Sequence record: SRR31156797_1849
Length of the DNA: 50,622 nucleotides
Reading direction: 5' to 3' (one strand)
The notes beneath the pieces were generated by a model. It searched no databases, had not been told where the DNA came from, and saw only the letters and a list, made by a program, of their open reading frames with translations. Position numbers and translations under genes: made by a program. Shown here piece after piece: positions 1 to 47,514 of this stretch (its first letter is position 1; each line of letters begins with the position of its first letter).

Positions 1-1261
1 AGAACCAGAACCGGAGCCAGAACCGGAACCGGAGCCAGAACCGGAACCGGAAGCTGAACCTGATTTCGATGATGACCTCTTTGACGAGGCTGTTGATGAG
101 TTAGGCGAGGAACTGGGCGAAGACCCGTTCGGCGATATTGCTGCTGATAAGCCGGGTGAAGCCCCCGCTGCTGATTCGGACGATCTTGAAGATGATCTTT
201 TCGGTTCTGATGATAATTCCGCTGATGCTGAAATCGGGGCCGATCTTTTTGATGATGACGACGATGATCCTTTTGCAGAGCCTGCCGCTGAGGAAGCCCC
301 TGCTGAAGACGATGATTTTGATATAGATGACGAGCTCTTCGGCGGAGATGACGATGAAGCCGAGGAAGCTGCTGTGCCGGCAGCCAGCGCAGAAGCCGAA
401 GAGGAAAGTGATGACCTTTTTGACGATGACGACCTGTTCGGTGATGACGATGACGGCGCTGATCTTTCCGAAGATAATCTTTTCGATGATGATGAAGAGA
501 TTGAGGAAGATGACGGCACCTTCGAAGAGGACGATTTCTCTGAAGAAGCTTTTGAGGAAGGTGAGGACTTCGAAGAAGAGGATTTTTCCGAAGATGAATT
601 GGATGACGATGACGGCCTCGCCCTTGATGATGGTGAGATAGCCGGATTTGATCTCGACGATGATCTCGATGCTCCTCCATCCAAGAAAAAAGAGAAAAAG
701 AAAGGTAAGAAAGGGTTGATCATTACCCTGATTATCCTGATTCTTTTTGCCGGTGGAGCCGGGGCCGCATGGTATCTCAAACTTTGGGAAAGCCTGCCTT
801 TCAGCATCCCCTTTGTCTCTTCCGAAGATGCCGGAACAACAGATTCCACCGAGCCGCCTTCCAAGCGTTTCAGCAAGTTCTCCTTCAAGGATCTGCGCCA
901 GTTCTATGTCAACAATGACAAGGCAGGACAGCTGTTCATCATTGAAGGTAAGGTGGTCAACAATTTCAGTAAGCCCAAAGAGTTGATTGAAGTTGAAGCG
1001 CAGCTTTTTGATGATAAGGGACAGGTGCTTGATTCCAAGCGTTTGCTTTGCGGAAACACCCTTTCCCTGTTCCAGCTGGAAGTGCAGTCCAAAGAAGAAA
1101 TCGAGGCCGGACTTGGCTCCAAGGTCGGCATACTCTCCAACAACACACTGCTCAAGCCGGGTATGGATACGCCGTTTATGGTCGTGTTCTTCAAGCCCTC
1201 GCCTGCAGTTAAAGAGTATGTCATCAACGTTGTAGATGCCAAGAATCCGCCTAAGAAATAG
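1..1261 (+). CDS. DUF3426-type membrane protein with long acidic linker (5'-truncated; probably zinc-ribbon/MJ0042 N-terminus outside window)
   Basis: Frame +2 is open from base 2 (EPEPEP...DFDDDLFDE) into ORF 374..1261. D/E-rich linker, KKKEKKKGKK, one TM helix (LIITLIILILFAGGAGAAWYL), then a periplasmic domain (LFIIEGKVVN...PFMVVF). Confidence 0.7.
   Translation, partial: EPEPEPEPEPEPEPEPEAEPDFDDDLFDEAVDELGEELGEDPFGDIAADKPGEAPAADSDDLEDDLFGSDDNSADAEIGADLFDDDDDDPFAEPAAEEAPAEDDDFDIDDELFGGDDDEAEEAAVPAASAEAEEESDDLFDDDDLFGDDDDGADLSEDNLFDDDEEIEEDDGTFEEDDFSEEAFEEGEDFEEEDFSEDELDDDDGLALDDGEIAGFDLDDDLDAPPSKKKEKKKGKKGLIITLIILILFAGGAGAAWYLKLWESLPFSIPFVSSEDAGTTDSTEPPSKRFSKFSFKDLRQFYVNNDKAGQLFIIEGKVVNNFSKPKELIEVEAQLFDDKGQVLDSKRLLCGNTLSLFQLEVQSKEEIEAGLGSKVGILSNNTLLKPGMDTPFMVVFFKPSPAVKEYVINVVDAKNPPKK
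2..52 (+). repeat. (Glu-Pro)n coding tandem repeat
   Basis: Degenerate 6-nt GARCCR units (gaaccagaaccggagcca...) encoding EPEPEP; continues off the window edge. Confidence 0.85.
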
Positions 1262-9521: not shown

Positions 9522-9974
9522 ATGGTTTATGATTTTTTCGTAAACCGAATCTTGAAAGGGATTTGGTGTCAGTTTAAATGGGGGGCGCTTAGCCTTACCG
9601 ATCCTATCTTTTATTTGTTTCTTTCTTTTGGTTTTGTAGGCCTTTATGTGCCTGAACCTGATTTGAAACTTTCTTTGAGTGTGTTGTTCTTAAAGGCACT
9701 GTTTGAGGAGTTTTTTTTCAGATTTCTGCTACAAGAAGGTCTTGATCGTCTTTTTAAGTACCAATGGCGATTAGGTCCGCTTAGTCTGGCTAATTTACTT
9801 GCTTCTTTGACTTTTGCATGCATGCATTTGATTCATCAGCCCCCACACTGGGCGTTGCTTACTTTTTTTCCGTCACTTGTTTTCGGTTATATATGGCAAA
9901 GATATCGCAGCTTAGTTTCGGCGACTCTTATCCACTTTGCCTACAATGCGTTTTTGTTTTATCAGTTTATGTGA
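9522..9974 (+). CDS. CPBP/CAAX-family glutamic intramembrane protease (resembles JDVT-CTERM-associated MrtJ type)
   Basis: EEFFFR (EExxxR), FACMH (FxxxH) and HFAYN (HxxxN) motifs; very hydrophobic; SLANLLAS and FFPSLVFG segments. Confidence 0.85.
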   Translation: MVYDFFVNRILKGIWCQFKWGALSLTDPIFYLFLSFGFVGLYVPEPDLKLSLSVLFLKALFEEFFFRFLLQEGLDRLFKYQWRLGPLSLANLLASLTFACMHLIHQPPHWALLTFFPSLVFGYIWQRYRSLVSATLIHFAYNAFLFYQFM

Positions 9975-10132
9975 TTTTGTCTGGATTGCGGAAAGCTTGA
10001 CGGGCGTTTGCAAGTGTAGGATGTTTGCAGGGATGCAACTCTTTAATTGTTAGAATTTAAGGATTGTCGGCTGGATGGCTGGTAATTCTATGCAGATAAA
10101 AATGATTCGTACCGGGAATACCGGTGGAGCTT

Positions 10133-12151
10133 ATGGCGCTGAATATGCTGAAAAAAGTTTGTAAATTTGTTGTAGGTTTGGTTTTGTCCATGGTCCTTAT
10201 GGTTTCTGTTGCCGTAGCACAGCCAGAAGGCGGTGACGGAGTCCATGCCAACCTTGAGAGTATTTCCCTTGTTGAATTCATCAAATTCGTAGGTCGCTAT
10301 ACCGGCAGGAATATTGTTTTTCAAAAAGGAGCCTTACCCGGCTCTCATATCAGCATTTATGCCGGGCAGTCGCTCACTGAACCGGAATTGATGGCCGTTT
10401 TTCAAGAAGTTTTGAGTGGAGCCGGGTTTCATGCCGTAACCCGGGACAATGTCACTTATGTTTTGCCGTTGAGAGATGCAAAACTTATTTCTCCTGATAT
10501 TAAAGCGTCCCCTTCTTCCGGGAATGGGGAAGAGATCATTACTTCTGTGTTTCAGCTTGAAGGGAAAATGGACCCGGCTAAGGTTCAAACAGTGCTGGCT
10601 CAAATTGCTTCAAAAATTGGGAGAATTACACCTGTTCCCATGGCCGATGCAGTAATGGTGCGGGACTTACAGGGCCATGTGAATAAAATGAAAAAGCTGC
10701 TGAACATTCTGAAAAAAGCAGGTGAGCAGCAGGAGTCGGCCCTAATTGAGTTGGATAAATCCAGTTCTAAAACTGTGGCATCAAAGCTGACTTCATTTTA
10801 TAAAAAATTGTCAACATCCGGAAAAACCGGGATTCCGCCGGTTATTGAATCTTTAGATTGGGCTAACAGTCTGCTTGTGTCTGGGAGCGGCGATCAGATC
10901 GATACTATAAAAAGACTTATTTCCAAGCTCGATAAAGGCAGCGATGTCTATTCTAAGATGAAAATTTACAGGCTGCATAACATTGAAGCGGTTGTGGCCG
11001 GTGAAGTTTTGAAGAGTCTCGTTACGGGCGGAGGTATTCCTTCTTCAAGCAATTCTGCAGAAGAAGGCTCCGGTTCGAAGTCAGAATCAACAAGTTCTTC
11101 AAAGTCGTCTGCGCCTAAGTCTTCCGATGATTCAGCTGAAATTCAAGTTTCCGCAGACGAAACTACCAACACCCTTATTGTAATGGCTAGCGCTGATCAG
11201 CTGCCCCAGATTGATAATTTCGTTGAACAATTGGATCAGGCACAGGATCAGGTCTACATCGAAGCTCTCGTTCTTGAAACTACTCTCGATAACGCCAAAG
11301 CATTCGGTGTAGAGTGGCAGGGCGGTATAGACATGGGCGGTAGCGTAGCCACCTTGGGCTACACTAAGACTAAGGACAGTAACCTCCCCGGCTATGCAGC
11401 TAATCCATCCAGTGTCCCCGGCGGTTATTCCATGGGGGTTTTGGGGGACACAATTTCTTATGCGGGTAAAAGCTTTCCTACTATTGGGGCTCTGGTTAAT
11501 TTTACCAAGTCCGCTACTGATTTTAATCTTATTTCTGCTCCTCAGATTATGACCTTGGACAATGCTGATGCTGAGATTTTTGTTGGTGAAAACAGACCAT
11601 ACAAAAGCGGAGAAAGTACAACAACAGGCAGCGGGGTTGTCTCGACTTATTCTTATAAAGATGTAGGTATTAAGCTTAAGATTACCCCTAGGATTAACCG
11701 TGAAGACGGGTTGATCAAACTTAAAGTGTATCAGACTTATAATACTGTCTCCGAGGCTAGTACATCCGAACTTCCGATAACAAATGATCGTGTAACAGAT
11801 ACAACCGTTCTGCTTGCAGATGGTTCGACCATGGTTATCGGTGGACTTATTCAGGCGGACCAGACCCGCTCTGAGTCCGGAGTTCCTTATCTTTCTGATC
11901 TCCCTTTGCTGGGCTGGCTTTTTAAGACTACAAGCAATAGTGGCAAGAAGAATACTTTGATGGTTTTTCTTTCCGCACGCATAATTCAGACTAATGAAGA
12001 ACTTGAGGCTCTGAGCAAGGCCAAGATGGACAAATACAGGAATCAGCGTAAGCGTTTTGACAGCTTCATTGATAAAGAGTTCAATACCTATAAAAATGAT
12101 TCTAAAGAATCAGATGAGAACAGTGTAAGTTCTTCTTTTTCTGATGGTTAG
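10133..12151 (+). CDS. gspD: Type II secretion secretin GspD-like
   Basis: Signal peptide, N0-N3 domains, QVYIEALVLE, APQIMTLDN, YKDVGIKLKITPRIN, VPYLSDLPLLGWLF. Start could be 10124, 10133 or 10145. Confidence 0.9.
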   Translation: MALNMLKKVCKFVVGLVLSMVLMVSVAVAQPEGGDGVHANLESISLVEFIKFVGRYTGRNIVFQKGALPGSHISIYAGQSLTEPELMAVFQEVLSGAGFHAVTRDNVTYVLPLRDAKLISPDIKASPSSGNGEEIITSVFQLEGKMDPAKVQTVLAQIASKIGRITPVPMADAVMVRDLQGHVNKMKKLLNILKKAGEQQESALIELDKSSSKTVASKLTSFYKKLSTSGKTGIPPVIESLDWANSLLVSGSGDQIDTIKRLISKLDKGSDVYSKMKIYRLHNIEAVVAGEVLKSLVTGGGIPSSSNSAEEGSGSKSESTSSSKSSAPKSSDDSAEIQVSADETTNTLIVMASADQLPQIDNFVEQLDQAQDQVYIEALVLETTLDNAKAFGVEWQGGIDMGGSVATLGYTKTKDSNLPGYAANPSSVPGGYSMGVLGDTISYAGKSFPTIGALVNFTKSATDFNLISAPQIMTLDNADAEIFVGENRPYKSGESTTTGSGVVSTYSYKDVGIKLKITPRINREDGLIKLKVYQTYNTVSEASTSELPITNDRVTDTTVLLADGSTMVIGGLIQADQTRSESGVPYLSDLPLLGWLFKTTSNSGKKNTLMVFLSARIIQTNEELEALSKAKMDKYRNQRKRFDSFIDKEFNTYKNDSKESDENSVSSSFSDG

Positions 12152-12163
12152 CAGGGCGATAAA

Positions 12164-13645
12164 TTGAGTAATTCCTATGATTTGAATCTGGTTCCGCGCG
12201 AAGTGGTGGATCTTTTTTTGACATTTCCTCAGCGTAATGAGTTTATTCCTGTGGAAGTGCAAGATAGGCAGATTAAGGTGCTTTTGCAGAATGAAGCGTC
12301 TTTACCCATGGCTGATTTTTTGGCTTGGAAGGTAGGTAAGAACGTTGTTTCGGAAATTGTATCCGAGGAAGAGTTTTTCCCTCTGCTTGAGCAGGCGTTG
12401 ACTGTCTGGGAAGAGGAAAGTGCCATTGAATCTGATTCTGATGATGCTGAGGGCGAAGATGGTCAGGACCTGCTTGGCTGGTCCCATGATGATGCTCCTA
12501 TTGTTCGTTTAGTGAATAAAACATTGCATCAGGCTATTTCCACTGGAGCCAGTGATATTCATTTTGAGGGGCAGGGTAACGGTTTCGTGGTTCGTTATCG
12601 GCAGGATGGTGTTTTGAAGGCGGTTAAGCGTCTTGATAAAGGGTTGCAGCCTACAGTGATCGCCCGTCTTAAGGTTATGGGCGAGATGGATGTTGCCGAG
12701 AGTCGTAAACCGCAGGACGGACGTATTTTTCTTAAGCTCGGACAGAAGGAAGTTGATGTCCGTGTTTCCACAATTCCTACCATGAGCGGAGAGAAGGCTG
12801 TCCTGCGTATTTTGGACCGCTCCAAGAATATTCTTAATCTTGAAGATCTCGGCCTTAAAGGGCCGGACCTTGAATTGTTCAGAAAGGTTCTTGCCCAGCC
12901 CCACGGTATTGTACTTGTTACCGGGCCTACCGGTTCTGGTAAAACCACCAGCCTTTATGCCGGACTTAGTGAACTGCCACGCGACGACAAGAATATTGTC
13001 ACCGTAGAAGATCCCGTGGAATATCAGCTTTCAGGAGTTAACCAGGTTCAGGTTAACAAGGCCGCGGGCATGACTTTTGCCACCACTATCCGTTCCTTTC
13101 TAAGGCAGGATCCGGACATTATCCTCGTTGGTGAAATTCGAGATCAGGAAACCGCAAGCACTGCTGTTCAGGCATCTCTTACCGGTCACCTTGTGCTTTC
13201 CACTTTGCATACTAACGATGCGGCCACTGCGGTGACCAGAATGCTCGATATGGGTATCGAGCCGTTCTTACTTGCATCATCACTTTCTCTTGTGCTCGGT
13301 CAGCGTCTTGTGCGCGTCAATTGTAAGCACTGTTCTCGTACTGTGGATGTTTCCGAAAATACCCATAAACTCTTTGAGGAAGTGGAAGGGCTGCCTTTAA
13401 CTCAGTCTGCCGGAGCAGGGTGTGAGCATTGTAACTTTACCGGATTCAGCGGGCGACGTGGTGTTTACGAGCTTATCCCAGTAACAGAAGATATGCGTGG
13501 GTTGATCATGGAAATGGCGTCTTCTGATCAGATTAAGGCTTACGCTAGAGAAATGGGGCGTGAGACAATGGTTGATCATGGTGTCAGGTTGGTCAAAGAA
13601 GGTGTTACTACACTTGAAGAAGTTGTCAGGGTTACTAAGCTTTAA
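12164..13645 (+). CDS. gspE: Type II secretion ATPase GspE/PulE
   Basis: ASDIHFE, RKPQDGR, Walker A GPTGSGKTT, TVEDPVE, LRQDPDIILVGEIRD, GHLVLSTLHTND, CKHC...CEHC tetracysteine. Confidence 0.93.
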   Translation: MSNSYDLNLVPREVVDLFLTFPQRNEFIPVEVQDRQIKVLLQNEASLPMADFLAWKVGKNVVSEIVSEEEFFPLLEQALTVWEEESAIESDSDDAEGEDGQDLLGWSHDDAPIVRLVNKTLHQAISTGASDIHFEGQGNGFVVRYRQDGVLKAVKRLDKGLQPTVIARLKVMGEMDVAESRKPQDGRIFLKLGQKEVDVRVSTIPTMSGEKAVLRILDRSKNILNLEDLGLKGPDLELFRKVLAQPHGIVLVTGPTGSGKTTSLYAGLSELPRDDKNIVTVEDPVEYQLSGVNQVQVNKAAGMTFATTIRSFLRQDPDIILVGEIRDQETASTAVQASLTGHLVLSTLHTNDAATAVTRMLDMGIEPFLLASSLSLVLGQRLVRVNCKHCSRTVDVSENTHKLFEEVEGLPLTQSAGAGCEHCNFTGFSGRRGVYELIPVTEDMRGLIMEMASSDQIKAYAREMGRETMVDHGVRLVKEGVTTLEEVVRVTKL

Positions 13646-13686: not shown

Positions 13687-15801
13687 ATGAATATTCGTGA
13701 TGAATTTCGTAAACCAGAATGGGTCGCCGACTGGAAACTTTTTATATTTCTCGCTGTGATTTCGTTTGCTGCTGCATTTGGATTGCGTTGTTTAGAGTTT
13801 CCCAAATGGGATAACCCGGCATTTATGATCAATGGTGAGTATATCATGGGAACTCATGATGCTTACTTCTGGCTAGCCGGTGCAAAGGGGGTCGGTAACG
13901 CAGTAAATAACCCTATGTCAGGTCTTATTCGTTTTCTGGGTGGCCTGACCGGTGTTTCATATGGGAACATCGCATTCTGGCTGCCTGCTGTCTTTGCCGG
14001 GTTTACAGGGATTGCCGCATTTGCCTGGGGGCTGTTGATCGGTGGCCCTTGGGTTGGCCTGACCGGTTCTCTCTTTGCCACTACTGTTCCGGTATATTTT
14101 TTCAGAACCAGACTTTCCTATTATGATACTGATGTAGTCACATTATTTTTCCCTTTGCTGTTGTCGATTCTGTTAGCTCGGTGGATTTATTCTGGCATTA
14201 GTTCGGGGTGGCTGTCGTCCAAGGAAGATGTTCCGACGTTCAAGCCTAGGATCATTGATTATTTTCTGCCCTTGCTGGCCGGTGCGGTAACCAGCTACGG
14301 AAAGTTATGGCACGTGGATATTTACTCTTTCGGTGTTTTGAGTTTTGTCTTTGCGCTCGGACTTGCCTTGCTGCTTTCTAGAGATGAAAACCGTACTTCA
14401 TTACTGAAAGGATTGGTTGTTTTTTCTTTTGCCGCGTTTCTGGGGCTTCCCGGCCTTGTCGCTGCTTTAGGATGTGTCTTCCTGTTCCGTTCTGACCGGT
14501 TTGCCGGAAATAAATATTTATCCAACGTTTGGGTGTTGCTGGCATGCGTGCTCGGGGTTTTTCTTGGGGGGGCAGGTAATGCTCTTTATGTTACTGTTCT
14601 GGGCAAAGTTGTCGCATATATAAAGCCTGTTTCGGAAAGTGTAACCCAAAGTGGCGGGCCATTATATCCCGGAATAACTCAAAGTGTAATTGAAGCGCAA
14701 AATATCAGCCTTGGAGCTTTATTTGAAAATCTGACAGGTAGTGAAGTTCTGTCATGGTTTGGAATCGTTGGTTTTTTCTTTTTATTGTTCATGAGACCTT
14801 CCGCTGCATTTTTGCTCCCTTTTACTCTGATGATCTTTGCAGCAGTAAAGCTGGGGGGCCGTTTTTCGATGTTCGGCGGCATCACAGTGGGTATTGGAGC
14901 CTCTTTTGCTTTAATGTGGATAGGCGATAGGTTTCTCCCGAACAAAAAGAATATTTCAGTATATAAGTTTTGTGCAACTGCCGTGTTGATTTATGTCTTA
15001 GCCTCAAATTGCTGGACTGTTTTCTTCAATGCGCAGCCTACGCCGATAATGGGCAACTACCACGCAAAGGCCCTGATTGAGACCGGTGAAGCAGCTCCGG
15101 AAAACAGTATGTTTTGGACCTGGTGGGATTGGGGATATGCCACCATGTATTACACCGGGAAAGAATCATTTGCTGATGGTGGAAGGCATGGCGGAACAAT
15201 TCTCTTTCCTCTTGCGCTTCCCTACGCGACCTCATCCCCTTTGCAGGCCAGTCAGGTAATTAAGTATTCTGCAATGAATAATTATGCTCCTAGTTCTGGC
15301 TGGGATAAAATGTCTGCAAAAGAAGTTGCAAATGGTCTCCGTGTGATGTCCGAAAGTCGAGTTAATCTTCCTGTTAAAGACAAACAGTATTTTGTGGTCA
15401 GCTGGGAAAATATCAGGTTGGCTTATTGGATTTTATATTATGGTTCCTGGAACATCGAGACAGGAGTAGGGGTTCACCCCAATATTTCAGGTATTCATGA
15501 GGCATTCGGATTTGATCAATCTTCCGGTTTACTTACCTTTAATCAGGGGCAACGGGTCTTGATTAGAACATCCGATCTTCTGGCTAATGGAAGATCTGTC
15601 CATAATGAATACAAGAATAAGAGCTGGACGCATCTGATTTTCAACAAGGCAATCAGTCAGGGATATTTTGTCGATTCTTTTGCTTATAATAGCCTGCTGG
15701 TTCGTTTGTTGGTTGCAGATCCGCAGACACCAGAGATCAGTTCAAATTTCAAGCTTGTTTATGAAGGCTTTCCTCTGGTGAGAATTTATGAAGTTCTTTA
15801 G
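13687..15801 (+). CDS. pglB: STT3/PglB family oligosaccharyltransferase (N-glycosylation)
   Basis: THDAYFW, RTRLSYYDTD (DxD), SVIE, GGRF, WWDWGY and DGGRH motifs in PglB order; multi-pass TM N-terminal half plus periplasmic C-domain. Confidence 0.92.
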   Translation: MNIRDEFRKPEWVADWKLFIFLAVISFAAAFGLRCLEFPKWDNPAFMINGEYIMGTHDAYFWLAGAKGVGNAVNNPMSGLIRFLGGLTGVSYGNIAFWLPAVFAGFTGIAAFAWGLLIGGPWVGLTGSLFATTVPVYFFRTRLSYYDTDVVTLFFPLLLSILLARWIYSGISSGWLSSKEDVPTFKPRIIDYFLPLLAGAVTSYGKLWHVDIYSFGVLSFVFALGLALLLSRDENRTSLLKGLVVFSFAAFLGLPGLVAALGCVFLFRSDRFAGNKYLSNVWVLLACVLGVFLGGAGNALYVTVLGKVVAYIKPVSESVTQSGGPLYPGITQSVIEAQNISLGALFENLTGSEVLSWFGIVGFFFLLFMRPSAAFLLPFTLMIFAAVKLGGRFSMFGGITVGIGASFALMWIGDRFLPNKKNISVYKFCATAVLIYVLASNCWTVFFNAQPTPIMGNYHAKALIETGEAAPENSMFWTWWDWGYATMYYTGKESFADGGRHGGTILFPLALPYATSSPLQASQVIKYSAMNNYAPSSGWDKMSAKEVANGLRVMSESRVNLPVKDKQYFVVSWENIRLAYWILYYGSWNIETGVGVHPNISGIHEAFGFDQSSGLLTFNQGQRVLIRTSDLLANGRSVHNEYKNKSWTHLIFNKAISQGYFVDSFAYNSLLVRLLVADPQTPEISSNFKLVYEGFPLVRIYEVL

Positions 15802-15931
15802 AGCCTTATTGAATAAAATGGTTGCTAAACAAGGCTTGATAAGTTAACAATTCAATTGAAAATGGATCAAAACGCTGTGTTTTGGTTCGTTCTTTGTTTC
15901 TTACTAACCTATATCATTGGAGAAAACTGTT

Positions 15932-17923
15932 ATGAAAAAAATTACAGTTTTGATGGTTTCCATGCTGATGCTGATGGCTTCCTACGCATCCGCAGCGGTT
16001 ACTCCGGATTTCCCGGCGTACCTGAACTCCAGTTCCGACTACATTAACGGAACTGTTATGGTTTTTACAGGATTCAGTGTTAACGCTACTGCTGGTTCCG
16101 TTGTAGCCGGTACCGGTACTGAACAGCCGATTATCCCCTTTTCCAGCAACATGACTAAGGGCGACAAATCCACTCAGTTCTTTTTCAACGGAACTGGTAC
16201 TCAGTACTTTTCCAACGCTACCGTAGTTTCCTACAACGCTACTAAAGGTCAGTGGGGACTGAACGGTACTTCCATGATGTTTACCTTCGGTAACAACACC
16301 GGTAACATCGTTGACACCGTAATGCTCGGTGCAAAAGCAACCAACGGCGCTGCTCCTTTCAACGGAACCACTGCTACTGGTCGTCCTTTCTTTATCCCTG
16401 CAGGTAACTACCAGATGATGGTTGGTCTTGCTAACGGTACCCTCGGTGACAAGCATCAGGCTGACGCTCAGGTTGCTGGTGTTATCCCCGCAGCTGGTGG
16501 TCCTAAGTCTGGTCTGTCCATGCCTATGATGTACGCTAACGGTACTTTCGAAGGCATCAACAGCTCCTCCGACACTTGGGATTACTACGCATACGGTGTA
16601 GCTAACGAATACCCCGTAATGGTATTTGCTCAGGTTCAGATTACCGCTATGAACGGTGATGCTAACGCTCAGGTTAAGTACTTCGTTGATAACGCTACTT
16701 CTACCATCACTGACAACACCTCCTCTTGGATGAACTACAACGCTACCAACATGCAGGAATCCAACGGTGGCGTGATGGCTCTGACCAGAAGCGGTGGCAT
16801 GTCCCTCTTCGAAAACGCAACCATCAACGTAGACCAGAACATGGTTACCGGTTACGTTTACACCGACACCATCAAGCTTTTTGGTGTAATGGTTAAGAGT
16901 GGTACTACCCTTAGCTCTGACGACGTTAAAAACCGTGGTTTCAACATGATTTATGTTGGTTCCGGTTACGATTCCAACAGCCTCGGTAACGCAACTGCTG
17001 GTGTCCTGCAGTTCAACGCTGATGATAACCTGACCCTCGCTGGTAACGCTCGTGTTCTCGAAGACGGCGCAACAGGCGCACAGGTAGCAACCGACGCATC
17101 TCTCGGTGGCTTCTCTCTCGCTCTTGCTTCCACCAGCCAGTTCGGTCTCTCCCAGTCTAACATGACTGTATACGCAGCTGACGGAACTACCGTTGTAGGT
17201 AACTTCTACGGTAAACAGTCTGCTGATAAAGTATTCTCCGTAGGTTTCTTTGAAGATGCAGACGGCTACCGCGGTCTCTCTTTCATGATCCCCACTCAGG
17301 CTAGCACCACTGCTGCTGCTACTGCAGCTTCCGGTTACCAGCACAACTCTACTGCGACTCTGGCACCTGTATGGTTTACCCAGAACGCAACTGGTTACAC
17401 CTCCGTAGCTCTTAAAGCTCGTTGGACTAGCGTACCTTCTGACTTCACTCCTCTGACTGACGTTAAAGGTTATGACACTAGCGTAACTGGCCAGAAAGGC
17501 GACTACTACTTCTCCTCTCAGTACCAGATGTCTGGTATTAGCGGTAAAGTTGAGAACCTCCGCCTCTACAAGCTGATGACCAACTCTGCTAACAGCCACA
17601 TGTTCACCTACGCATCTTCTGCAACTCCTTCTACTGACGGTTCCTGGTGGATTTCTACCGCGGCTGCTGACGGTTACCTGAACCCGAACTCCGTTCTTGA
17701 TCCTGCCACTTCCTACTACGTAACTTGGGTTGTAAAAGACAACGGTACTTACGATGCTAACTCCACTGCAGCTGGTATCCTTGACCCGGTTGTACTTGGT
17801 TCTGTTCCTAACTCCTCCAGCTCCTCCGGTTGTGTATTCAACCCCGCAGCTGGTTTCGGTCTGGAATGGCTCCTGCTGATGCTTGCTCCCATGGTTGCTA
17901 TCGTACGTAGCCGCTTCAAGTAG
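15932..17923 (+). CDS. Secreted S-layer-like glycoprotein candidate with Cys-containing C-terminal sorting signal (JDVT/Synerg-CTERM-like)
   Basis: GGAG RBS, Sec signal ending ASA, A/G/S/T/N-rich, 25 N-X-S/T sequons (hand count), tail SSSSSGCVFNPAAGFGLEWLLLMLAPMVAIVRSRFK, extreme codon bias. Confidence 0.8.
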   Translation: MKKITVLMVSMLMLMASYASAAVTPDFPAYLNSSSDYINGTVMVFTGFSVNATAGSVVAGTGTEQPIIPFSSNMTKGDKSTQFFFNGTGTQYFSNATVVSYNATKGQWGLNGTSMMFTFGNNTGNIVDTVMLGAKATNGAAPFNGTTATGRPFFIPAGNYQMMVGLANGTLGDKHQADAQVAGVIPAAGGPKSGLSMPMMYANGTFEGINSSSDTWDYYAYGVANEYPVMVFAQVQITAMNGDANAQVKYFVDNATSTITDNTSSWMNYNATNMQESNGGVMALTRSGGMSLFENATINVDQNMVTGYVYTDTIKLFGVMVKSGTTLSSDDVKNRGFNMIYVGSGYDSNSLGNATAGVLQFNADDNLTLAGNARVLEDGATGAQVATDASLGGFSLALASTSQFGLSQSNMTVYAADGTTVVGNFYGKQSADKVFSVGFFEDADGYRGLSFMIPTQASTTAAATAASGYQHNSTATLAPVWFTQNATGYTSVALKARWTSVPSDFTPLTDVKGYDTSVTGQKGDYYFSSQYQMSGISGKVENLRLYKLMTNSANSHMFTYASSATPSTDGSWWISTAAADGYLNPNSVLDPATSYYVTWVVKDNGTYDANSTAAGILDPVVLGSVPNSSSSSGCVFNPAAGFGLEWLLLMLAPMVAIVRSRFK

Positions 17924-17967
17924 TAAGTTGATGCATCTCTGGGTCATTAGATCTAGACGCTGATTAT

Positions 17968-18000
17968 ATGGAGAGTCGGATTATTCCGGCTCTCCATTTT
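17968..18000 (+). terminator. Rho-independent terminator after the surface protein gene
   Basis: ATGGAGAGTCGGA / TCCGGCTCTCCAT stem followed by a short T run. Confidence 0.75.
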
Positions 18001-18033
18001 CGTCTTTAAGGTTTTAGAAAAGGTTGGCTAGCC

Positions 18034-18906
18034 GTGTATCCTGAGTTTCTGGCAACTCATTATTCAAACAAATTGGTAGCAAAGTTTGCTCGTGAGATAG
18101 TGCATAGAGTAAGGCCTGATCTTTTCTTTTCCGCTTTCATGAAAAAGCAGTCTAACCCTTTTCCTCACGCGGCCTATTCACTTACTTTTGATTTTGATTT
18201 TGAAAAAGACATTGAAGCATTTCCTGTGCTTTTGGATAAATTGTCTGAATATAAAATCAAAGCCGGGTTTGCCGTGATAGGAAAGTTTGTAGAAAAGTAT
18301 CCGGATATACATCTGCGAGCTGTTGATGAAGGGCACGAGATCATCAACCATACCTACACACACCCTGATAATCCGCACTGGGCTCCGAATAGATATTTCA
18401 ATAAGCTCTCATATTCCGAGCAGTACGATGAAATCTACAAAGCGCACGATGTCTTCAATCGAATCCTTAAGATTAATTGTGTGGGATTCCGCACTCCGCA
18501 TTATGGCAATCTGCATTGCGATAGTGTTTATCCTATTCTGAGAGATTTGGGCTATCTTTACAGCAGCTCAACAGCAGCATGTTGTTTTTCCGGATATGGT
18601 GCTCCTGTAAGTTATAAGCACGGAATAGTCGAAATTCCGACTGGATGTAGCCTTCATTTTCCGTTAGCGATATTTGATTCGTGGAACATGCTGCGAAAGA
18701 AGAAACCTTTCTTAAGCACTGATGAGGCTTTTTGCGAAGAATTTGAGAATACAATTGCTTTCCTTAGCAAGAATGATTTGTTTCTTACACATTATTTTGA
18801 TCCGTACGATATAGTTGAAAATTCCAAGATTGATAGGGTTCTTTCTATGCTGTCCGGCATTAATACAGTTTTGTACCGGGATATTCCTTTTACTGGTTTA
18901 CAGTAA
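18034..18906 (+). CDS. Polysaccharide deacetylase (CE4/NodB-like)
   Basis: LTFDFD, GHEIINHTYTH, GFRTPH, GYLYSSS motifs. Confidence 0.85.
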   Translation: MYPEFLATHYSNKLVAKFAREIVHRVRPDLFFSAFMKKQSNPFPHAAYSLTFDFDFEKDIEAFPVLLDKLSEYKIKAGFAVIGKFVEKYPDIHLRAVDEGHEIINHTYTHPDNPHWAPNRYFNKLSYSEQYDEIYKAHDVFNRILKINCVGFRTPHYGNLHCDSVYPILRDLGYLYSSSTAACCFSGYGAPVSYKHGIVEIPTGCSLHFPLAIFDSWNMLRKKKPFLSTDEAFCEEFENTIAFLSKNDLFLTHYFDPYDIVENSKIDRVLSMLSGINTVLYRDIPFTGLQ

Positions 18907-19008
18907 GTGAGAGTAATAATATGCTGCCCCAGTTTTCGCGCTAGCGAATTTATTTTAAATGAAATCAGATTTGAATAAGCTTCAACAAACAAGGCCGAGA
19001 TTATTTTT

Positions 19009-20415
19009 ATGAGTACTAAACCCTCAATACTATTTTTAGCCCGAGCCCGTCTGGACGTATTATATTTAGAGACTATTAAGGAGCTTCGCAAAAAATATAC
19101 AGTTGTAGTTATCTGTGCTGAGGATTCAATTAATTCATACAAAGATCTGGAAGGCATAATTGTAGTTGGAAGCAGTTACCTTTATACTGAATCTGATAAT
19201 GCCGATTTGAACCGGATAAGCGATGTTGAGAAAAAGCTTGGCCTTGATTGCTATGCGTCAAATATAAATTATTTCCTGTACCGCAAATTTGCTGGCCACT
19301 ACGGCGTCGATCAGATGCATAAGAGCGAAAACGAACGTGTTCCTAGCGTTTTTATTCGTGCTTATGATTTTTTGATGGAGCTGGTGGATAAGTACAACAT
19401 TCAGTATGCCTTTTTTGAGACCATCGACACAATTGATTCCGTTATTCTTGCGGCTATGGCAAAGGTTGGGATAATCAGGCAGACCTTTGAAAGAGGGTTT
19501 CTGTCGATAGGCGGGGAAATGAGGATGCGGCTTTGCTCTGAGCAGACCAAAATTTCACCTCGTTTGAATCATATATATGAGCATAAGAAGTTTTCCGCTG
19601 AAGATGTAGCTTGGGCAGAAAATGTTATCGGGAAGTCAAAAGCGAAGCGAGTTATTTCCGATTATGATCGCGTGCATATGAAGATGGGCTCTACTCTTCC
19701 GCGGAAGAAGGTATCTGAGTATGTGTCGAAGGTGAAGGGTATAATGGCAGGTAAAGACGCTGCTCTTCCTACGCTTTTGAAGATAAAAAATAGAATTTTT
19801 GCTAAAAAATATTTTACCGATTCTTTACCCAAGACTAAGGTTTTAAGTTATTTTCTGCAGCTTACCCCGGAAGCAAGCTTGTGTTATCAGATCCCTAAAT
19901 TTGCAGACCAGCTCTATATGCTTGAGCAGGTCGCCATGCGGGGCAAATATGACTACACAATTGTCGTAAAGGAGCACCCCCGTTGCTACGGCAACAGGCT
20001 TCCTCAATTTTATAAAGAATTGACGATGCTCCCAAATGTGATTTTGCTTCCTCCTTCCTTCTCAAACCGGGAGATCATAGACAAGAGTGAGGCTGTCCTT
20101 TGTCTTGGTGGAAGTAGTCCGGCTTTGGAATCCCTGATAAACAGTAAGCCTGTTATCACATTAGGGCATCCTTATTTTGATGTTTGTAAGAACGTTTACA
20201 ATGTAGATGCACCGGAACAGGTATGGAACATAATTGAAGCTGTTAAGCACGATCATGATGATCAGGTGCGTTTTTTTGCTGCATTGCATGCGGCAACTTG
20301 TCCACACCCGGAATCTAATTCGCTGCGAGGTTTGGCTCAGGCTTCTGGGTTAGGTCCTGTGCTTGCGAAATTTATTGACCATGAAATTGATCTTTATGAA
20401 CAGGGTGTTCTTTAA
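19009..20415 (+). CDS. Capsule-biosynthesis (KpsS-like) putative CMP-sugar glycosyltransferase
   Basis: C-terminal LQLTPEA, VVKEHPR, ALESLINSKPVITLG segments resembling the Capsule_synth family; adjacent to neuBCA-like genes. Confidence 0.55.
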   Translation: MSTKPSILFLARARLDVLYLETIKELRKKYTVVVICAEDSINSYKDLEGIIVVGSSYLYTESDNADLNRISDVEKKLGLDCYASNINYFLYRKFAGHYGVDQMHKSENERVPSVFIRAYDFLMELVDKYNIQYAFFETIDTIDSVILAAMAKVGIIRQTFERGFLSIGGEMRMRLCSEQTKISPRLNHIYEHKKFSAEDVAWAENVIGKSKAKRVISDYDRVHMKMGSTLPRKKVSEYVSKVKGIMAGKDAALPTLLKIKNRIFAKKYFTDSLPKTKVLSYFLQLTPEASLCYQIPKFADQLYMLEQVAMRGKYDYTIVVKEHPRCYGNRLPQFYKELTMLPNVILLPPSFSNREIIDKSEAVLCLGGSSPALESLINSKPVITLGHPYFDVCKNVYNVDAPEQVWNIIEAVKHDHDDQVRFFAALHAATCPHPESNSLRGLAQASGLGPVLAKFIDHEIDLYEQGVL

Positions 20416-20443
20416 TTGTTATATCGGATGATGGAGTTTTGTC

Positions 20444-21478
20444 ATGCCGGATTTTCAGTTTGCTACCGAGTTTGAAATTGCTGGACGCAAAGTAGGTGGA
20501 GATGCTTCTTGCTTTATCATAGCTGAGGCTGGTGTTTCTCATTTTGGCGATTTGAATAAAGCTTACCAATTGGTAGATATGGCCAAAGAGGCTGAAGCCG
20601 ATGCGGTGAAGTTTCAGATTTTCAAGACAGATGAGCTTATTTCTGAAGCATCTGAGGAGTGGAAAGACAGGTTGCGCTCCAAAGAGCTCGTTTATGAGGA
20701 TTTTATTAAAATTGCGGATTATTGCAGCGAGCAGGGAATAACTTTTCTGGCTACTGCGCATGATGAACCAAGCCTCGAGTTTTTAGAGTCCCTGAATGTT
20801 CCTGCCTACAAAATTGGTTCCGGCGAGATTCAAAACTGGCCTTTTATTGAAATGATTGCCGCAACACAAAAGCCGGTTATCCTTTCAACCGGTATGTACA
20901 GGGAAGAAGATATCGAAAACGCCCTGACTGTTTTCGCCAAAGTTGGCAATCCCAATCTTGCTGTACTGCATTGTGTCACAAGCTACCCTACGCCGCCTTC
21001 CGCTGTTAATCTCAAGGCAATCTCATTTTTAAAGAAGCGGTTTAATGTTATCAGCGGTTTTTCCGATCATACAGAAGGGTATCATATCCCTCTAGCTGCT
21101 GCTGCATTGGGAGCGCAGGTCATAGAGAAACATATTTCCATGGATTTCAATGTACCCAATGCCCAAGACTGGAAAGTTTCCTGTGGGCCACACAATTTAG
21201 CCCGGTTTATTTCTGAAATTCGTGATGTAGAACAGGCTTTGGGTGTTGAGAGTAAGAATGTTGAGGCTTGTGAAGAGCAGAGCATTGAGTGGGCCCGTAA
21301 GAGTATTACCGCAGCTCGGGATATTGATGCGGGAAGCATCATTTCCAGAGAGGATTTAGTTTTTAAGCGCCCTGGAACAGGGCTTCCTCCATCGGAAATT
21401 GATCAGGTGTTGGGCAGGAAAACAGTAAAGTCCATCAAAGCGGATACCATTATTTCAAAGGACATGATTGATGGCTAG
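20444..21478 (+). CDS. neuB: N-acetylneuraminate synthase family (NeuB/LegI-like) with SAF domain
   Basis: IIAEAGVSHFGD, ADAVKFQ, KIGSGE, ILSTGM, LHCVTSYP, GFSDHT, IEKH, KRPGTG. Confidence 0.9.
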   Translation: MPDFQFATEFEIAGRKVGGDASCFIIAEAGVSHFGDLNKAYQLVDMAKEAEADAVKFQIFKTDELISEASEEWKDRLRSKELVYEDFIKIADYCSEQGITFLATAHDEPSLEFLESLNVPAYKIGSGEIQNWPFIEMIAATQKPVILSTGMYREEDIENALTVFAKVGNPNLAVLHCVTSYPTPPSAVNLKAISFLKKRFNVISGFSDHTEGYHIPLAAAALGAQVIEKHISMDFNVPNAQDWKVSCGPHNLARFISEIRDVEQALGVESKNVEACEEQSIEWARKSITAARDIDAGSIISREDLVFKRPGTGLPPSEIDQVLGRKTVKSIKADTIISKDMIDG

Positions 21479-22622
21479 GCAGAAAATATGTGTGATAATT
21501 ACCACTCGAGGTAATTATGCGAAAATGAAGTCTGTTATGCATAGGCTTCAGGACAGTGACAAATTTGAACTGCAACTGATTGTGGCCGGTGGTATTGTTT
21601 TACCCAAATATGGGTATGATATTACCAGCTTGATTGAGCAGGATTTTAAAATCGACCGCCGTATTTACTATATTGTTGAGGGAGACACTCCTCTAACCAT
21701 GGCTAAGTCTGCCGGGTCAGCAATTGTTGAGTTCAGTACAGCTTTTGAGAATCTGCAACCCGATGCTGTTGTTGTTATTGCCGACAGGTTCGAATGTCTT
21801 TCCATCGCCATGGCCTCAAGCTACATGAATATTCCTGTCATCCATGTTGAGGGTGGGGAGGTTTCCGGCTCCATTGACGAATCGGTAAGGCATGCTATTT
21901 CCAAACTTTCCCATATTCATTTTCCGGCAACCTCCGATGCAGCTGAACGAATCGTCAAGATGGGTGAAGATCCGTCTACAGTTTTTACTGTCGGAGCTAC
22001 CAGTCTTGATGTTATCAGCCGTATTGATGCCGGACGTGAAAAGCTTAAGGAACTTGCTCCTAAAGGTGTAGGTGCGGATATTTCACTTGAGGGTGACTAC
22101 CTTGTGGTCAGCCAGCATCCTGTTACAACCGAGTACAGCAAGAACCTTGATCATATCAATGAGACTGCCGAGGCCGTAAAAGAGCTTGCGATGCCAACTG
22201 TCTGGATCTGGCCGAATATGGACGCTGGGGCTGATGAAGTTTCTAAGGGTGTAAGAATTTTCAGGGAACAGGAAAATCCTAAAAATGTACGTTTTTACAA
22301 GAGTCTGCCTATCCAGCTTTATGCTCCGCTGATTGCGAATGCGGCATGTATTGTCGGTAACTCTTCCAGTGGATTAAGAGAATCCGCCTTTTTGGGAACA
22401 CCGTGTGTTAACATTGGGACCAGACAGAGCGGGAGAGAGCGTGGGCACAATGTAAGGGATTGCGGCTATAGCCGTGATGAGATCCTTGAAAGCGTTAGAT
22501 TTCAACTGGGCCATGGCCGCTATGAACCGGATCATCTTTACGGTGACGGTATGGCTGGTGAAAAAATAGTTGACGTGCTTGAAGATTATTCCTTTACCAT
22601 TCAAAAACAGATTACTTACTAG
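21471..22622 (+). CDS. neuC: Hydrolysing UDP-sugar 2-epimerase (NeuC/LegG-like)
   Basis: TTRGNY, ADRFE, HVEGGEVSGSIDESVRHAISKLSHIHF, QHPVTTE, GNSSSG, GTRQSGRE. Confidence 0.9.
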   Translation: MARQKICVIITTRGNYAKMKSVMHRLQDSDKFELQLIVAGGIVLPKYGYDITSLIEQDFKIDRRIYYIVEGDTPLTMAKSAGSAIVEFSTAFENLQPDAVVVIADRFECLSIAMASSYMNIPVIHVEGGEVSGSIDESVRHAISKLSHIHFPATSDAAERIVKMGEDPSTVFTVGATSLDVISRIDAGREKLKELAPKGVGADISLEGDYLVVSQHPVTTEYSKNLDHINETAEAVKELAMPTVWIWPNMDAGADEVSKGVRIFREQENPKNVRFYKSLPIQLYAPLIANAACIVGNSSSGLRESAFLGTPCVNIGTRQSGRERGHNVRDCGYSRDEILESVRFQLGHGRYEPDHLYGDGMAGEKIVDVLEDYSFTIQKQITY

Positions 22623-22629
22623 ATTTATA

Positions 22630-23592
22630 ATGAAACCTACTCTGATATACTACTCAATACTCAAATACCGTGCTGAAAATCTGGCAGTACTTGACTCTAT
22701 TTTCGATGTTATCGAGCTACCAGATCCTTCACATGATACACCGGAGATCTTGGAGCGTGCTGAGGCCGTTCTTGCACCACTTGGCTATAAGGTGGACCGT
22801 GAGAAGATTGATGCCATGCCCAAACTCAAGGTGATCGGTTCCAACACTACCGGGCACCCCCATATAGACGTGGATTATGCAGCCGAAAAAGGTATTGCAG
22901 TCCGTACCTTGAAATATGAAAAGGATTTTCTGCGTACAATCACTCCCACTGCTGAATTGACCTGGGGACTGCTTATTGCTGTTACCCGCAATTTCCGTCC
23001 GGCAATCGATTCTGTGCTGGATGGCAGTTGGGATCGCAGGCCATATCCGGGACCAGCAATGCTCTCTCAGATGAGTATCGGTATCGTGGGACTGGGGAGG
23101 CTTGGCTCCATTGTAGCTGACTATGCATGCGCTTTCGGAATGAAGGTCGGGTATTATGATCCGTTTGTCTCCGAAGGGCGTGATGAGCTTGTCAGGTATG
23201 AAAGTCTTGAAGAGTTGGTTGCTGGACATGATATAATTACTGTTCATGTCCCGCACGAACCCGAGACTGAGAATATGTTTGATAGGCGGCTTTTTGATAT
23301 GTTCAAGAAGGGGTCGTATTTTATCAATACATCTCGCGGTGAGCTTGTTGACCATCAAGCTCTCATGGATGAGCTTGATAGCGGTAGAATTTCCGGGGCA
23401 GCCATGGATGTCTTTCCGGATGAATTCAACCCGCAGTTTGATATTACCCGCCAGAAAATGTGGAAATATATCAATGAACATAAAAATGTGATCGTCACAC
23501 CGCATATTGCAGGGTCTACGGAAGATGCATGGCGGCTTACTGAGCGCAAAGCTATAGATATGGTCAGTGAAATTTTTAAAGCTGGAGCTTAG
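22630..23592 (+). CDS. D-isomer-specific 2-hydroxyacid dehydrogenase
   Basis: TAELTWGLL, GIVGLGRLG, YYDP, INTSRG, MDVF, TPHIAG. Confidence 0.88.
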   Translation: MKPTLIYYSILKYRAENLAVLDSIFDVIELPDPSHDTPEILERAEAVLAPLGYKVDREKIDAMPKLKVIGSNTTGHPHIDVDYAAEKGIAVRTLKYEKDFLRTITPTAELTWGLLIAVTRNFRPAIDSVLDGSWDRRPYPGPAMLSQMSIGIVGLGRLGSIVADYACAFGMKVGYYDPFVSEGRDELVRYESLEELVAGHDIITVHVPHEPETENMFDRRLFDMFKKGSYFINTSRGELVDHQALMDELDSGRISGAAMDVFPDEFNPQFDITRQKMWKYINEHKNVIVTPHIAGSTEDAWRLTERKAIDMVSEIFKAGA

Positions 23593-23594
23593 CT

Positions 23595-24320
23595 ATGTCT
23601 GTTGATAAATCTATCTGGGCTTTGATCCCCGCCCGAGGCGGCTCCAAATCTATCCCTTATAAAAACATTTTTAAGCTTAATGGTCGTCCGCTGATTGACT
23701 ATCAGGTTCTTGCTGCAAGGGCTGCCACAAGTATCGACCGGATTATCTGCTCTACTGATGATGAAAAAATTGCAGGGCATTGCCGAGAACTCGGGATCGA
23801 TGTTCACGAGCGTCCGATAGAACTTGCGTCTGACAGTGCTAATGTTGTGGATGCTATCAAGCATTTTCTGTTACAGGAGCAGGCCAAAGGAGAGGCGCTG
23901 CCGTACGCAGTGGCCTTGCTGCAGCCAACATCCCCCTTTTTGCTTCCGGCGCAAATAGATGCTTGTTCTGACGCTCTCAGAGGTAATCCTGGTGCGAATT
24001 CATCACAGACTGTGGCGGATATCCCGCATAACTACCATGCTTTTAATCAGCGGGTCATAAAAGACGGTACTGTGGATTTCAATTTTACCGAAGAACGGAA
24101 GGTCTGTTACAACAAACAGTCCAAACCGCATTTTTACAGCTTCGGTAATTTAGTGATTACTCGCAGCGATGCTCTGCTGGCGGATAAGGGTGTTTTTGCA
24201 GTACCTTCCGTACCGGTGGAGATTCCGACTGTCTATGCCTACGATTTTGATGGCCCGCAGGATGTGCAGCTGGCTGAACTGTATCTTTCCAGCGGGATGG
24301 TTGAGTTAGGGCATTTGTAA
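23595..24320 (+). CDS. neuA: Acylneuraminate cytidylyltransferase (NeuA/LegF-like)
   Basis: IPARGGSKSIPYKN, CSTDD, RP.ELASD, LLQPTSPF. Confidence 0.9.
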   Translation: MSVDKSIWALIPARGGSKSIPYKNIFKLNGRPLIDYQVLAARAATSIDRIICSTDDEKIAGHCRELGIDVHERPIELASDSANVVDAIKHFLLQEQAKGEALPYAVALLQPTSPFLLPAQIDACSDALRGNPGANSSQTVADIPHNYHAFNQRVIKDGTVDFNFTEERKVCYNKQSKPHFYSFGNLVITRSDALLADKGVFAVPSVPVEIPTVYAYDFDGPQDVQLAELYLSSGMVELGHL

Positions 24321-34498: not shown

Positions 34499-34500
34499 TA

Positions 34501-35553: not shown

Positions 35554-35589
35554 CAGACCTGTCTCCTGTGCTGCTCTGGATCGTCGCAA

Positions 35590-45005: not shown

Positions 45006-45008
45006 ACT

Positions 45009-46148: not shown

Positions 46149-46284
46149 TTGCAGGATTTCCTTTAAGGCTGAAAATTATCTGTAACAACGGGTCTGATAT
46201 TATATTTTGAACTTTTAGTACAGTTCTGAACTATTTCCTACAAAAGCAGCTGTAATGATTGCTTTTATATTGATGCGGGTAAAG

Positions 46285-47512: not shown

Positions 47513-47514
47513 AA

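Follow-up and report, generated by a model that had tools for sequence, protein, structure and literature searches.

The Pgl system of Campylobacter jejuni and Campylobacter lari N-glycosylates proteins with a single-subunit oligosaccharyltransferase (OST), PglB, which carries WWDxG and acidic catalytic motifs. Campylobacter glycoproteins contain only a few sites each, and Arg331 of the C. lari enzyme forms a salt bridge with the aspartate at position -2 of the sequon. The Desulfovibrio enzymes DgPglB, DdPglB, DvPglB, and DmPglB are relaxed; according to the accessible text of the source, Desulfovibrio PglBs glycosylate minimal N-X-T sequons, which they accepted in E. coli assays with heterologous targets (PMC4894442). 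These enzymes are valued as glycoengineering tools, and the accessible text of a further source leaves their native substrates essentially unknown beyond a single site, N261 of D. gigas HmcA, the sole native Desulfovibrio glycoprotein cited there (PMC12229607). The window analyzed here, a stretch of 50,622 nucleotides from sequence record SRR31156797_1849, comes from a Maridesulfovibrio-like bacterium, a marine sulfate reducer. It encodes a PglB of the Desulfovibrio clade and, directly downstream, an open reading frame (ORF) at 15932..17923 (+ strand) for a 663-aa protein with 25 N-X-S/T sequons, many of them conserved, in contrast to the one site of HmcA. The sequon excess of this protein is real and far beyond chance. 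As a conserved protein of about 25 sequons beside the enzyme, it is a first candidate natural client for this enzyme type, on which occupancy, glycan structure, and the rules for site choice (N-[A/G/S]-T with a hydrophobic residue at -2) can be measured. It is probably an abundant surface protein, heavily N-glycosylated and anchored at its C terminus, and the main client of a PglB of relaxed specificity.

Archaeal S-layer glycoproteins combine a signal peptide, many minimal N-sequons, and a Ser/Thr-rich linker and are glycosylated by AglB. Cys-containing sorting signals with a tripartite design have been described by Haft, and the accessible text of the same source pairs PGF-CTERM with the archaeosortase ArtA (10.1101/2023.06.07.544157). 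For MYXO-CTERM of Myxococcus, the accessible text reports experimental proof of cleavage by the protease MrtX and proposes surface display dependent on the type II secretion system (T2SS) (PMC11980579). Each element is already known separately, whether the relaxed OST of Desulfovibrio, the Cys-containing sorting tag, or display through the T2SS. New at this locus, which joins N-glycosylation by PglB to myxosortase-type sorting at the C terminus and to type II secretion, are a dedicated hyper-sequon client and its coupling to sorting and secretion genes within a hypervariable island. The searchable literature (subscription journals and supplements lay outside its scope) contained no such coupling centered on a single hyper-sequon client, nor did the search return a Desulfovibrio glycoproteome study or a mention of the protein's accessions or ortholog locus tag.

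Translation of the ORF gives 49 Asn residues, 25 of which stand in sequons (X not Pro), divided into 21 N-X-T and 4 N-X-S. Only N366 and N610 are preceded by D/E at -2, and neither this protein nor its family follows the extended sequon of Campylobacter. The original prediction, made by hand from the letters alone, had counted 25 sequons among about 49 Asn in about 663 aa, two of them with an acidic -2 residue, and these figures are exactly reproduced. Its further claim that about half of all Asn lie in sequons, above what the S+T content leads one to expect, also holds. The fraction is 51%, and 20,000 composition-preserving shuffles yielded a mean of 9.75 sequons (sd, 2.69) and a maximum of 21, so that the observed 25, the property expected of a PglB-type substrate, lies outside the shuffled range. 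Ser or Thr occurs 25 times at +2 of Asn but only 6 to 11 times at each of the other offsets within -3..+4, and [ST]-x-N, the motif read backward, is present 8 times. Because the +2 offset alone is elevated and the neighboring and mirror offsets are not, the excess is specific to the sequon register. Thr is favored over Ser in the sequons (21:4) although the protein contains 68 of each (binomial P = 0.0009). Against a proteome background drawn from the 41 other ORFs of the window rather than from the whole genome, the target stands far apart, with 3.77 sequons per 100 aa and a z of 5.6. Those ORFs hold 80 sequons in 15,496 aa (0.52 per 100 aa; 72.8 expected from shuffles), with 12% of their 659 Asn in sequons and a largest z of 2.4. 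The proteome comparison thus favors the original prediction as far as the window ORFs reach. Within the target, residues 22 to 200 are rich in sequons, with 11 of them (6.1 per 100 aa).

The excess is a property of the whole ortholog group. A word-seeded search returned 20 relatives with 40 to 53% identity, all "hypothetical" and nearly all from Maridesulfovibrio/Desulfovibrio, and the ortholog alignment comprises 21 Maridesulfovibrio/Desulfovibrio sequences that are 40 to 55% identical (∼50% overall). All 21 members contain 21 to 28 sequons (z, 2.8 to 6.5). In 3,000 shuffles per ortholog, the observed count was never reached for 19 members, once for P0019, and 18 times for P0022. Eight genomic orthologs, one of them from a Desulfovibrionales metagenome-assembled genome at 31% identity, show 23 to 28 sequons (z, 4.1 to 6.3). 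Of the 25 Asn in reference sequons, 9 are kept with their sequon in all 21 sequences, compared to 2 invariant residues among the 24 non-sequon Asn (Fisher P = 0.037); at a threshold of at least 17 of 21 sequences, the numbers are 15/25 and 5/24 (Fisher P = 0.009). In the conserved columns, the sequences with Asn are the sequences with the full sequon, S/T at +2 always being retained, while in the variable columns, sequons are lost and gained at a steady total of 21 to 28 per protein. This always-or-never pattern, together with positional turnover at a steady number, speaks for selection on the sequon as a unit despite the shared phylogeny.

Across the family, +1 is occupied by Ala (32%), Gly (28%), or Ser (15%) and +2 by Thr in 75% of cases; N-P-[ST] occurs only twice in the 21 proteins. 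D/E at -2 is found in 26 of 510 sequons (5.1%), compared to a background of 7.0%, and is not enriched. The earlier suggestion of selection for minimal sequons gains support from the count of 21 to 28 in 21/21 orthologs, the invariant columns, and the missing -2 enrichment, and the sequences are consistent with selection favoring sequons without an acidic -2 residue. The label "eukaryote/archaea type" given to these sites overstated their oddity, since Desulfovibrio PglBs that accept minimal N-X-T are already published, as the accessible texts show (PMC4894442 and PMC12229607).

The OST gene upstream (13687..15801, + strand) encodes a 704-aa single-subunit enzyme of the PglB/STT3 family (PF21436, 52 bits with a cutoff of 23; PF02516, 25.6 bits with a cutoff of 24.5) that contains the STT3 core and N-terminal domains and the catalytic motifs. 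It aligns to the C. lari PglB structures 5ogl, 6gxc, and 3rce with an E value of 3e-14. The motifs THDAY, QSVIEAQ, and WWDWG are kept in 10 of 10 related PglBs; the second is a Gln-flanked SVIE-type motif, described in the accessible text of PMC12229607 as a signature of Desulfovibrio PglBs and shared with the relaxed enzymes of that clade. The likeness to the Campylobacter system covers the single-subunit enzyme with its WWDxG and acidic motifs, the PglC/D/E/F-like and PglK-like genes nearby, and a proposed substrate that would be exported by Sec and modified at the Asn of N-X-S/T. Unlike the Campylobacter system, the enzyme reaches only 81.5 bits in the NCBIfam C. jejuni PglB equivalog model NF050801 (cutoff, 1,300), acidic -2 residues are absent from 23 of the 25 sites, and Arg aligns with Asn. 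This position, 12 residues past the Glu of SVIE and probably equivalent to C. lari R331, carries Asn in 9 of 10 related PglBs and Ser in 1; the window enzyme has Asn. DgPglB and DmPglB differ from the window-type enzymes in carrying Arg there (R377 and R375), according to the accessible sources. The R377N/H/Y variants of DgPglB prefer QYNST over DYNST, as stated in the accessible text of Ollis 2015 (PMC4894442). The natural Arg-to-Asn state at the position that reads -2 matches the engineered relaxing substitution and is a candidate specificity determinant, judged by that text.

The client protein begins with a signal peptide at about residues 1 to 21, with a basic N terminus, a hydrophobic run, and A-x-A near residue 21. 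It was recognized by eye and is accompanied by a helix at residues 2 to 18 in the AlphaFold2 (AF2) model, in line with the export expected of a PglB-type substrate. This is followed by the sequon-dense N-terminal beta region (residues 22 to 200; lower AF2 confidence), two 8-stranded beta-barrels (residues about 205 to 323 and 325 to 456), and a C-terminal beta domain (residues about 480 to 625) that is common to other tagged proteins. The AF2 model, calculated with a 43-sequence alignment, is almost all-beta, with a predicted local distance difference test value (pLDDT) of 83.2 and a predicted template modeling score (pTM) of 0.85. Profile searches of the 663-aa protein against Pfam and NCBIfam returned no family, and Foldseek found no global match in the PDB (TM score, ≤0.15), the local matches to AttH (2ich) and TbpB being generic. 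A wide VIA-align search, which hardly probed the N-terminal and C-terminal domains, matched only residues 205 to 456, with Z values of 7 to 11 to many unrelated 8-stranded barrels, including OmpA-like, avidin/lipocalin-like, TbpB, and fHbp barrels, and to no specific family. The ESM Atlas gave a best score of 0.78 to unnamed clusters and no lead. With only generic barrel matches, the fold suggests no enzymatic function. As to S-layer features, these profile and fold searches gave only the generic 8-stranded barrels and no Pfam/NCBIfam family.

The protein ends in a poly-Ser linker and a tripartite sorting tag (17813..17920, + strand), in which an invariant Gly-Cys (Cys634) and an NP motif precede a hydrophobic helix and a basic C terminus. 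The original prediction had missed this tag, as well as the protease and secretion context and the extreme codon bias described below. The tag is nearly invariant in the 21 orthologs; in a more distant set of 43 sequences, G633, C634, P638, and E645 do not vary, and AF2 places the terminal helix at residues 638 to 661. Similar tails occur in most of the 150 relatives listed, and the combination of Gly-Cys, NP, a hydrophobic helix with a conserved Glu, and a basic end recurs in more than 100 proteins of varied length (tails P0003 to P0168). A profile search with the tail alone gave nothing beyond Synerg-CTERM (E value, 1.2) and choice-of-anchor U (E value, 0.12), both far below the cutoffs. Since it recurs in >100 proteins below the NCBIfam cutoffs for JDVT-CTERM, MYXO-CTERM, and Synerg-CTERM, the tag may merit a model of its own.

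A candidate for processing this tag is encoded at 9522..9974 (+ strand), a 150-aa CPBP/Rce1-like intramembrane protease of the MrtJ type in the myxosortase family (PF02517; NF033192 CPBP_JDVT_MrtJ, 86.6 bits with a cutoff of 75). It is 75 to 93% identical and syntenic in loci L001 to L007, and the MrtJ model is passed by one gene per genome in five of five relatives. Between protease and client stand the genes for the type II secretin GspD (10124..12151, + strand; TIGR02517, 421 bits with a cutoff of 351; Pfam Secretin, Secretin_N, and GspD N0) and a GspE-type secretion ATPase (12164..13645, + strand; PF00437, 460 bits; TIGR02533, 564.9 bits, below the cutoff of 630). The likeness to the JDVT-CTERM/MrtJ pair described by Haft (10.1101/2023.06.07.544157) is limited to the protease, which passes NF033192, and the single Cys in the tag. 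Unlike JDVT-CTERM as defined in the accessible text, the tag stays under the NF033191 cutoff and shows no DP motif at the ninth residue past the Cys. Instead of one adjacent client, each related genome encodes 2 to 12 proteins that share this C-terminal domain and tag, and three genes separate protease and client. Both parts of the general tripartite scheme are present, namely, the Cys motif with transmembrane helix and basic end and a CPBP-family protease in the genome. As MrtJ passes and the tag fails the JDVT-CTERM criteria, the tag is filed under the wider myxosortase-type class. Judged by the accessible text of PMC11980579, it resembles the MYXO-CTERM/MrtX/T2SS arrangement of Myxococcus in the tripartite tag with invariant Cys, the CPBP protease, and the T2SS link and differs from it in the motif after the Cys, the short MrtJ-type protease, and the tie of the sorting genes to an OST and a glycan island.

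The reading of the protein as a glycosylated surface protein is built on observed features, namely, an excess of sequons that is conserved among orthologs, the order and family membership of the neighboring genes, the fold class, and the codon bias. From these, a four-step route can be proposed, whose tag-processing and T2SS steps follow the MYXO-CTERM/MrtX results by analogy. The client would be exported by Sec via its N-terminal signal peptide, and PglB at the periplasmic face would then move a lipid-linked glycan onto up to about 25 minimal sites of the form N-[A/G/S]-T without an acidic -2 residue. The glycan would be supplied by the adjacent pgl-like genes (PglC/D/E/F-like enzymes, glycosyltransferases, a PglK-like flippase, and nonulosonate genes). 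In the third step, the Cys tag would be processed, and the protein probably lipid anchored, by the MrtJ-type protease encoded three genes upstream. Lastly, type II secretion, represented by the GspD and GspE genes between protease and PglB, would take the client to the surface, where it would form a glycan-rich coat.

A client that is glycosylated by PglB but forms no surface coat is the alternative that survives best, although it is unlikely. Here, the protein would be a periplasmic or released binding protein or enzyme on lipocalin/avidin-like barrels, with MrtJ and the T2SS serving others. The 2 to 12 tagged proteins per related genome agree with this, since MrtJ is then not dedicated to the client, and the barrels are equally similar to those of soluble ligand-binding and surface proteins (Z, 7 to 11, with no specific family), while no Pfam/NCBIfam family matches the client. 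A protein of this kind is harder to reconcile with a tag that is nearly invariant in 21/21 orthologs and with a conserved gene order that sets the client beside protease, secretin, and ATPase. The related MYXO-CTERM tag, moreover, leads to surface anchoring according to the accessible text (PMC11980579).

A structural origin of the N-x-T excess, with Asn-Gly/Ala-Thr repeatedly forming turns or capping strands in a beta-rich, unglycosylated fold, is less probable still. Structural motifs would likewise be conserved among orthologs, and the almost all-beta protein with mostly Gly, Ala, or Ser at +1 and 13 of 25 sequon Asn in loops beside strands (DSSP states of the model) fits this proposal. It does not explain why the excess is confined to the +2 register and absent from the mirror and neighboring offsets, why Thr is favored over Ser as in OST substrates, or why N-P-[ST] is nearly missing in 21 proteins. 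The turnover of columns at a total of 21 to 28 and the OST gene conserved directly upstream also speak for glycosylation. A further argument comes from the wider family of tagged proteins. Searched exhaustively with phmmer, this family comprises 172 proteins at an E value of ≤0.001, most of which match only the C-terminal ∼130 to 160 residues and the tail. Among the matches listed, 18 full-length relatives contain 400 sequons, compared to 178 expected (ratio, 2.25), and the 115 relatives of at least 250 aa that match at the C-terminal end only contain 1,051, compared to 782 expected (ratio, 1.34). The ratio is at least 2 in 27 of these 115, several of which, proteins of ∼650 to 730 aa, may be distant members of the sequon-rich family. 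The tagged class of ∼1,200 aa shows no enrichment, in contrast to what a structural motif would predict for beta-rich proteins with the same C-terminal domain.

The target gene is also set apart by its codon usage, which serves here as a proxy for expression. Its effective number of codons (Nc) of 36.4 is the lowest in the window, where the 41 other ORFs range from 43.7 to 61.0; Asn is encoded by AAC in 49 of 49 cases, Tyr by TAC in 94%, and Gly by GGT in 75%, and TTA, CTA, and TCA are not used. The main text of the D. hydrothermalis RNA-seq paper, whose supplements were out of reach, does not mention the locus. Among sequencing runs, the stretch is contained in one DNA run, which may be its source, and in no listed RNA run. 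GGAG stands about 8 nt 5' of the ATG, with an alternative in-frame TTG at 15917. A weak promoter-like hexamer pair lies at 15836..15863 (+ strand) in the 130-nt gap before the gene, where promoter-like sites are not significant (2, compared to 3.0 expected in shuffles). Downstream, a terminator-like hairpin of 13 pairs (7 of them G-C) with a T-rich tail is found at 17968..18007 (+ strand), 45 nt past the stop; it is suggestive only, with 2 terminator-like sites compared to 2.2 expected in shuffles. The proposal that the real gene is instead the codon-aligned antisense frame of 677 aa at 15914..17947 (− strand), which is fully open and coincides with a local reversal of GC skew, has practically no chance of being right and was rejected, since its openness follows from the absence of TTA, CTA, and TCA in the sense gene and the skew from the strong codon bias, the frame is interrupted by 1 to 23 stops in 7 of 8 orthologous loci, and the + product, with its signal peptide and confidently predicted fold, has 172 relatives in the database. 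As a side observation, the gene for a DUF3426 protein at 2..1261 (+ strand) ranks second lowest in the window for TTA/CTA/TCA usage (0.24%) and has an Nc of 45.8; by codon usage, its product may be another well-expressed envelope protein.

Several points weigh against the reading of the 663-aa protein as an abundant surface glycoprotein served by PglB, MrtJ, and the T2SS, in which we infer that the sites carry glycans, that the tag is cleaved and lipidated, and that the protein depends on the T2SS, is abundant, and lies on the surface. The ortholog sequon counts share phylogeny and are not independent, and 11 of the 25 sequon Asn lie within predicted strands, a figure that describes DSSP states only and not solvent exposure. 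The equivalence of the Asn to C. lari R331 derives from a low-identity phmmer alignment, which makes it probable and not certain, and DmPglB is relaxed and accepts minimal sequons yet retains Arg, as the accessible text states (PMC12229607). The JDVT-CTERM model NF033191 finds no match in the window tail at an E value of ≤10, the tag of the ortholog in genome G003 scores 12.3 bits (cutoff, 27), and none of five genomes passes the model. The codon bias is not universal among orthologs, AAC/AAT being 29/27 in L003 and 37/28 in L006. Loci L009 (4385..10432) and L011 (4215..10306) contain the sole PglB gene followed by a ∼1,200-aa protein with the same C-terminal tag, and these proteins have 12 and 10 sequons, compared to 13.8 and 13.0 expected (z, -0.6 and -0.9). 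The L009 and L011 genomes lack a full-length ortholog of the 660-aa family, so PglB must have other clients there. As the ∼1,200-aa proteins are unenriched, the tag, the C-terminal domain, and OST adjacency alone do not bring a sequon excess. The adjacency emphasized in the original prediction is conserved, the gene standing directly after the OST in seven of eight full-length loci, but insufficient on its own.

Comparison of related loci, for which the 21-sequence ortholog alignment served as the query, shows that the order heptosyltransferase-MrtJ-GspD-GspE-PglB-client, in one orientation, is kept in these seven of eight full-length loci. The complete genome in L013 (G001:C1:2146000-2162000) contains DegT, PglD-like, PglC-like, GT4, and AsnB-like genes as at 45009..50588 of the window, followed by KpsF-like, GspF, a PDZ protein, a two-component pair, GspG, and pseudopilins. 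The distance between GspF and GspD is 41 to 52 kb in three genomes. With GspD/GspE on one flank and GspF/GspG on the other, the island appears to sit inside the type II secretion locus, which by gene order seems to be split by a glycosylation island of ∼35 to 45 kb. The island is also variable. In comparison with L004 and L005, the flanking proteins are 86 to 96% identical, PglB is 50 to 52% identical, and the client is 42 to 48% identical. Between 5926 and about 14159, the DNA is collinear with both loci at 81 to 82% identity; this similarity ends some 470 nt inside pglB, and the same breakpoint (14141..14187) appears against all five loci L001 to L005. Pairwise PglB identities among relatives are mostly 43 to 64%. 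The C-terminal two-thirds of the OST, the client, and the glycan genes thus look like a recombining hypervariable cassette, similar to surface-antigen loci.

These features allow a wider and more tentative proposal, which may well prove wrong, that the locus is a bacterial counterpart of archaeal S-layer glycoprotein biogenesis. The OST, the hyper-sequon client, and the ∼35 to 45 kb of glycan genes would constitute a hypervariable surface-coat cassette inserted in the T2SS locus between MrtJ-GspD-GspE and GspF-GspG. PglB would codiversify with client and glycan, and the product would be a dense, Cys-lipid-anchored glycan shield varying between strains, e.g., under pressure from phages or grazers. 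The similarity to the archaeal proteins (AglB with PGF-CTERM/archaeosortase A) is in outline only, comprising a signal peptide, many minimal sequons, a Ser-rich linker, a tripartite tag, and a membrane sorting enzyme. Unlike in archaea, the sorting enzyme belongs to a different family, no sequence or fold relation was found, and the diderm host needs a step for crossing the outer membrane, namely, the T2SS. By analogy, the locus suggests that diderm bacteria may build a heavily N-glycosylated surface coat in parallel to archaeal S-layer glycoproteins.

Downstream of the client lies a group of sugar genes (18034..24320, + strand) encoding a polysaccharide deacetylase, a capsule-synthesis-like protein, a NeuB-type nonulosonate synthase (TIGR03569, 345 bits, below the cutoff of 399.65), a UDP-GlcNAc 2-epimerase, a 2-hydroxyacid dehydrogenase, and a cytidylyltransferase. 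A candidate PglK-like ABC flippase is encoded at 36306..38003 (− strand), with ABC_tran and ABC_membrane domains and 576.9 bits in NF050066 (equivalog cutoff, 1,000). The genes at 43134..47512 (− strand) for a PglF-like dehydratase (PF02719), a DegT aminotransferase (PF01041), a PglD-like acetyltransferase (PF17836, PglD_N), and a PglC-like phosphoglycosyltransferase (PF02397) are predicted to start a lipid-linked glycan on a di-N-acetylated sugar. Other genes downstream and on the opposite strand of the window encode epimerases, acyltransferases, and GT4 glycosyltransferases. Amid the glycan genes, radical SAM/SPASM and FemAB-family proteins are encoded at 33383..35589 (− strand), which may point to an uncommon modification of a sugar or peptide.

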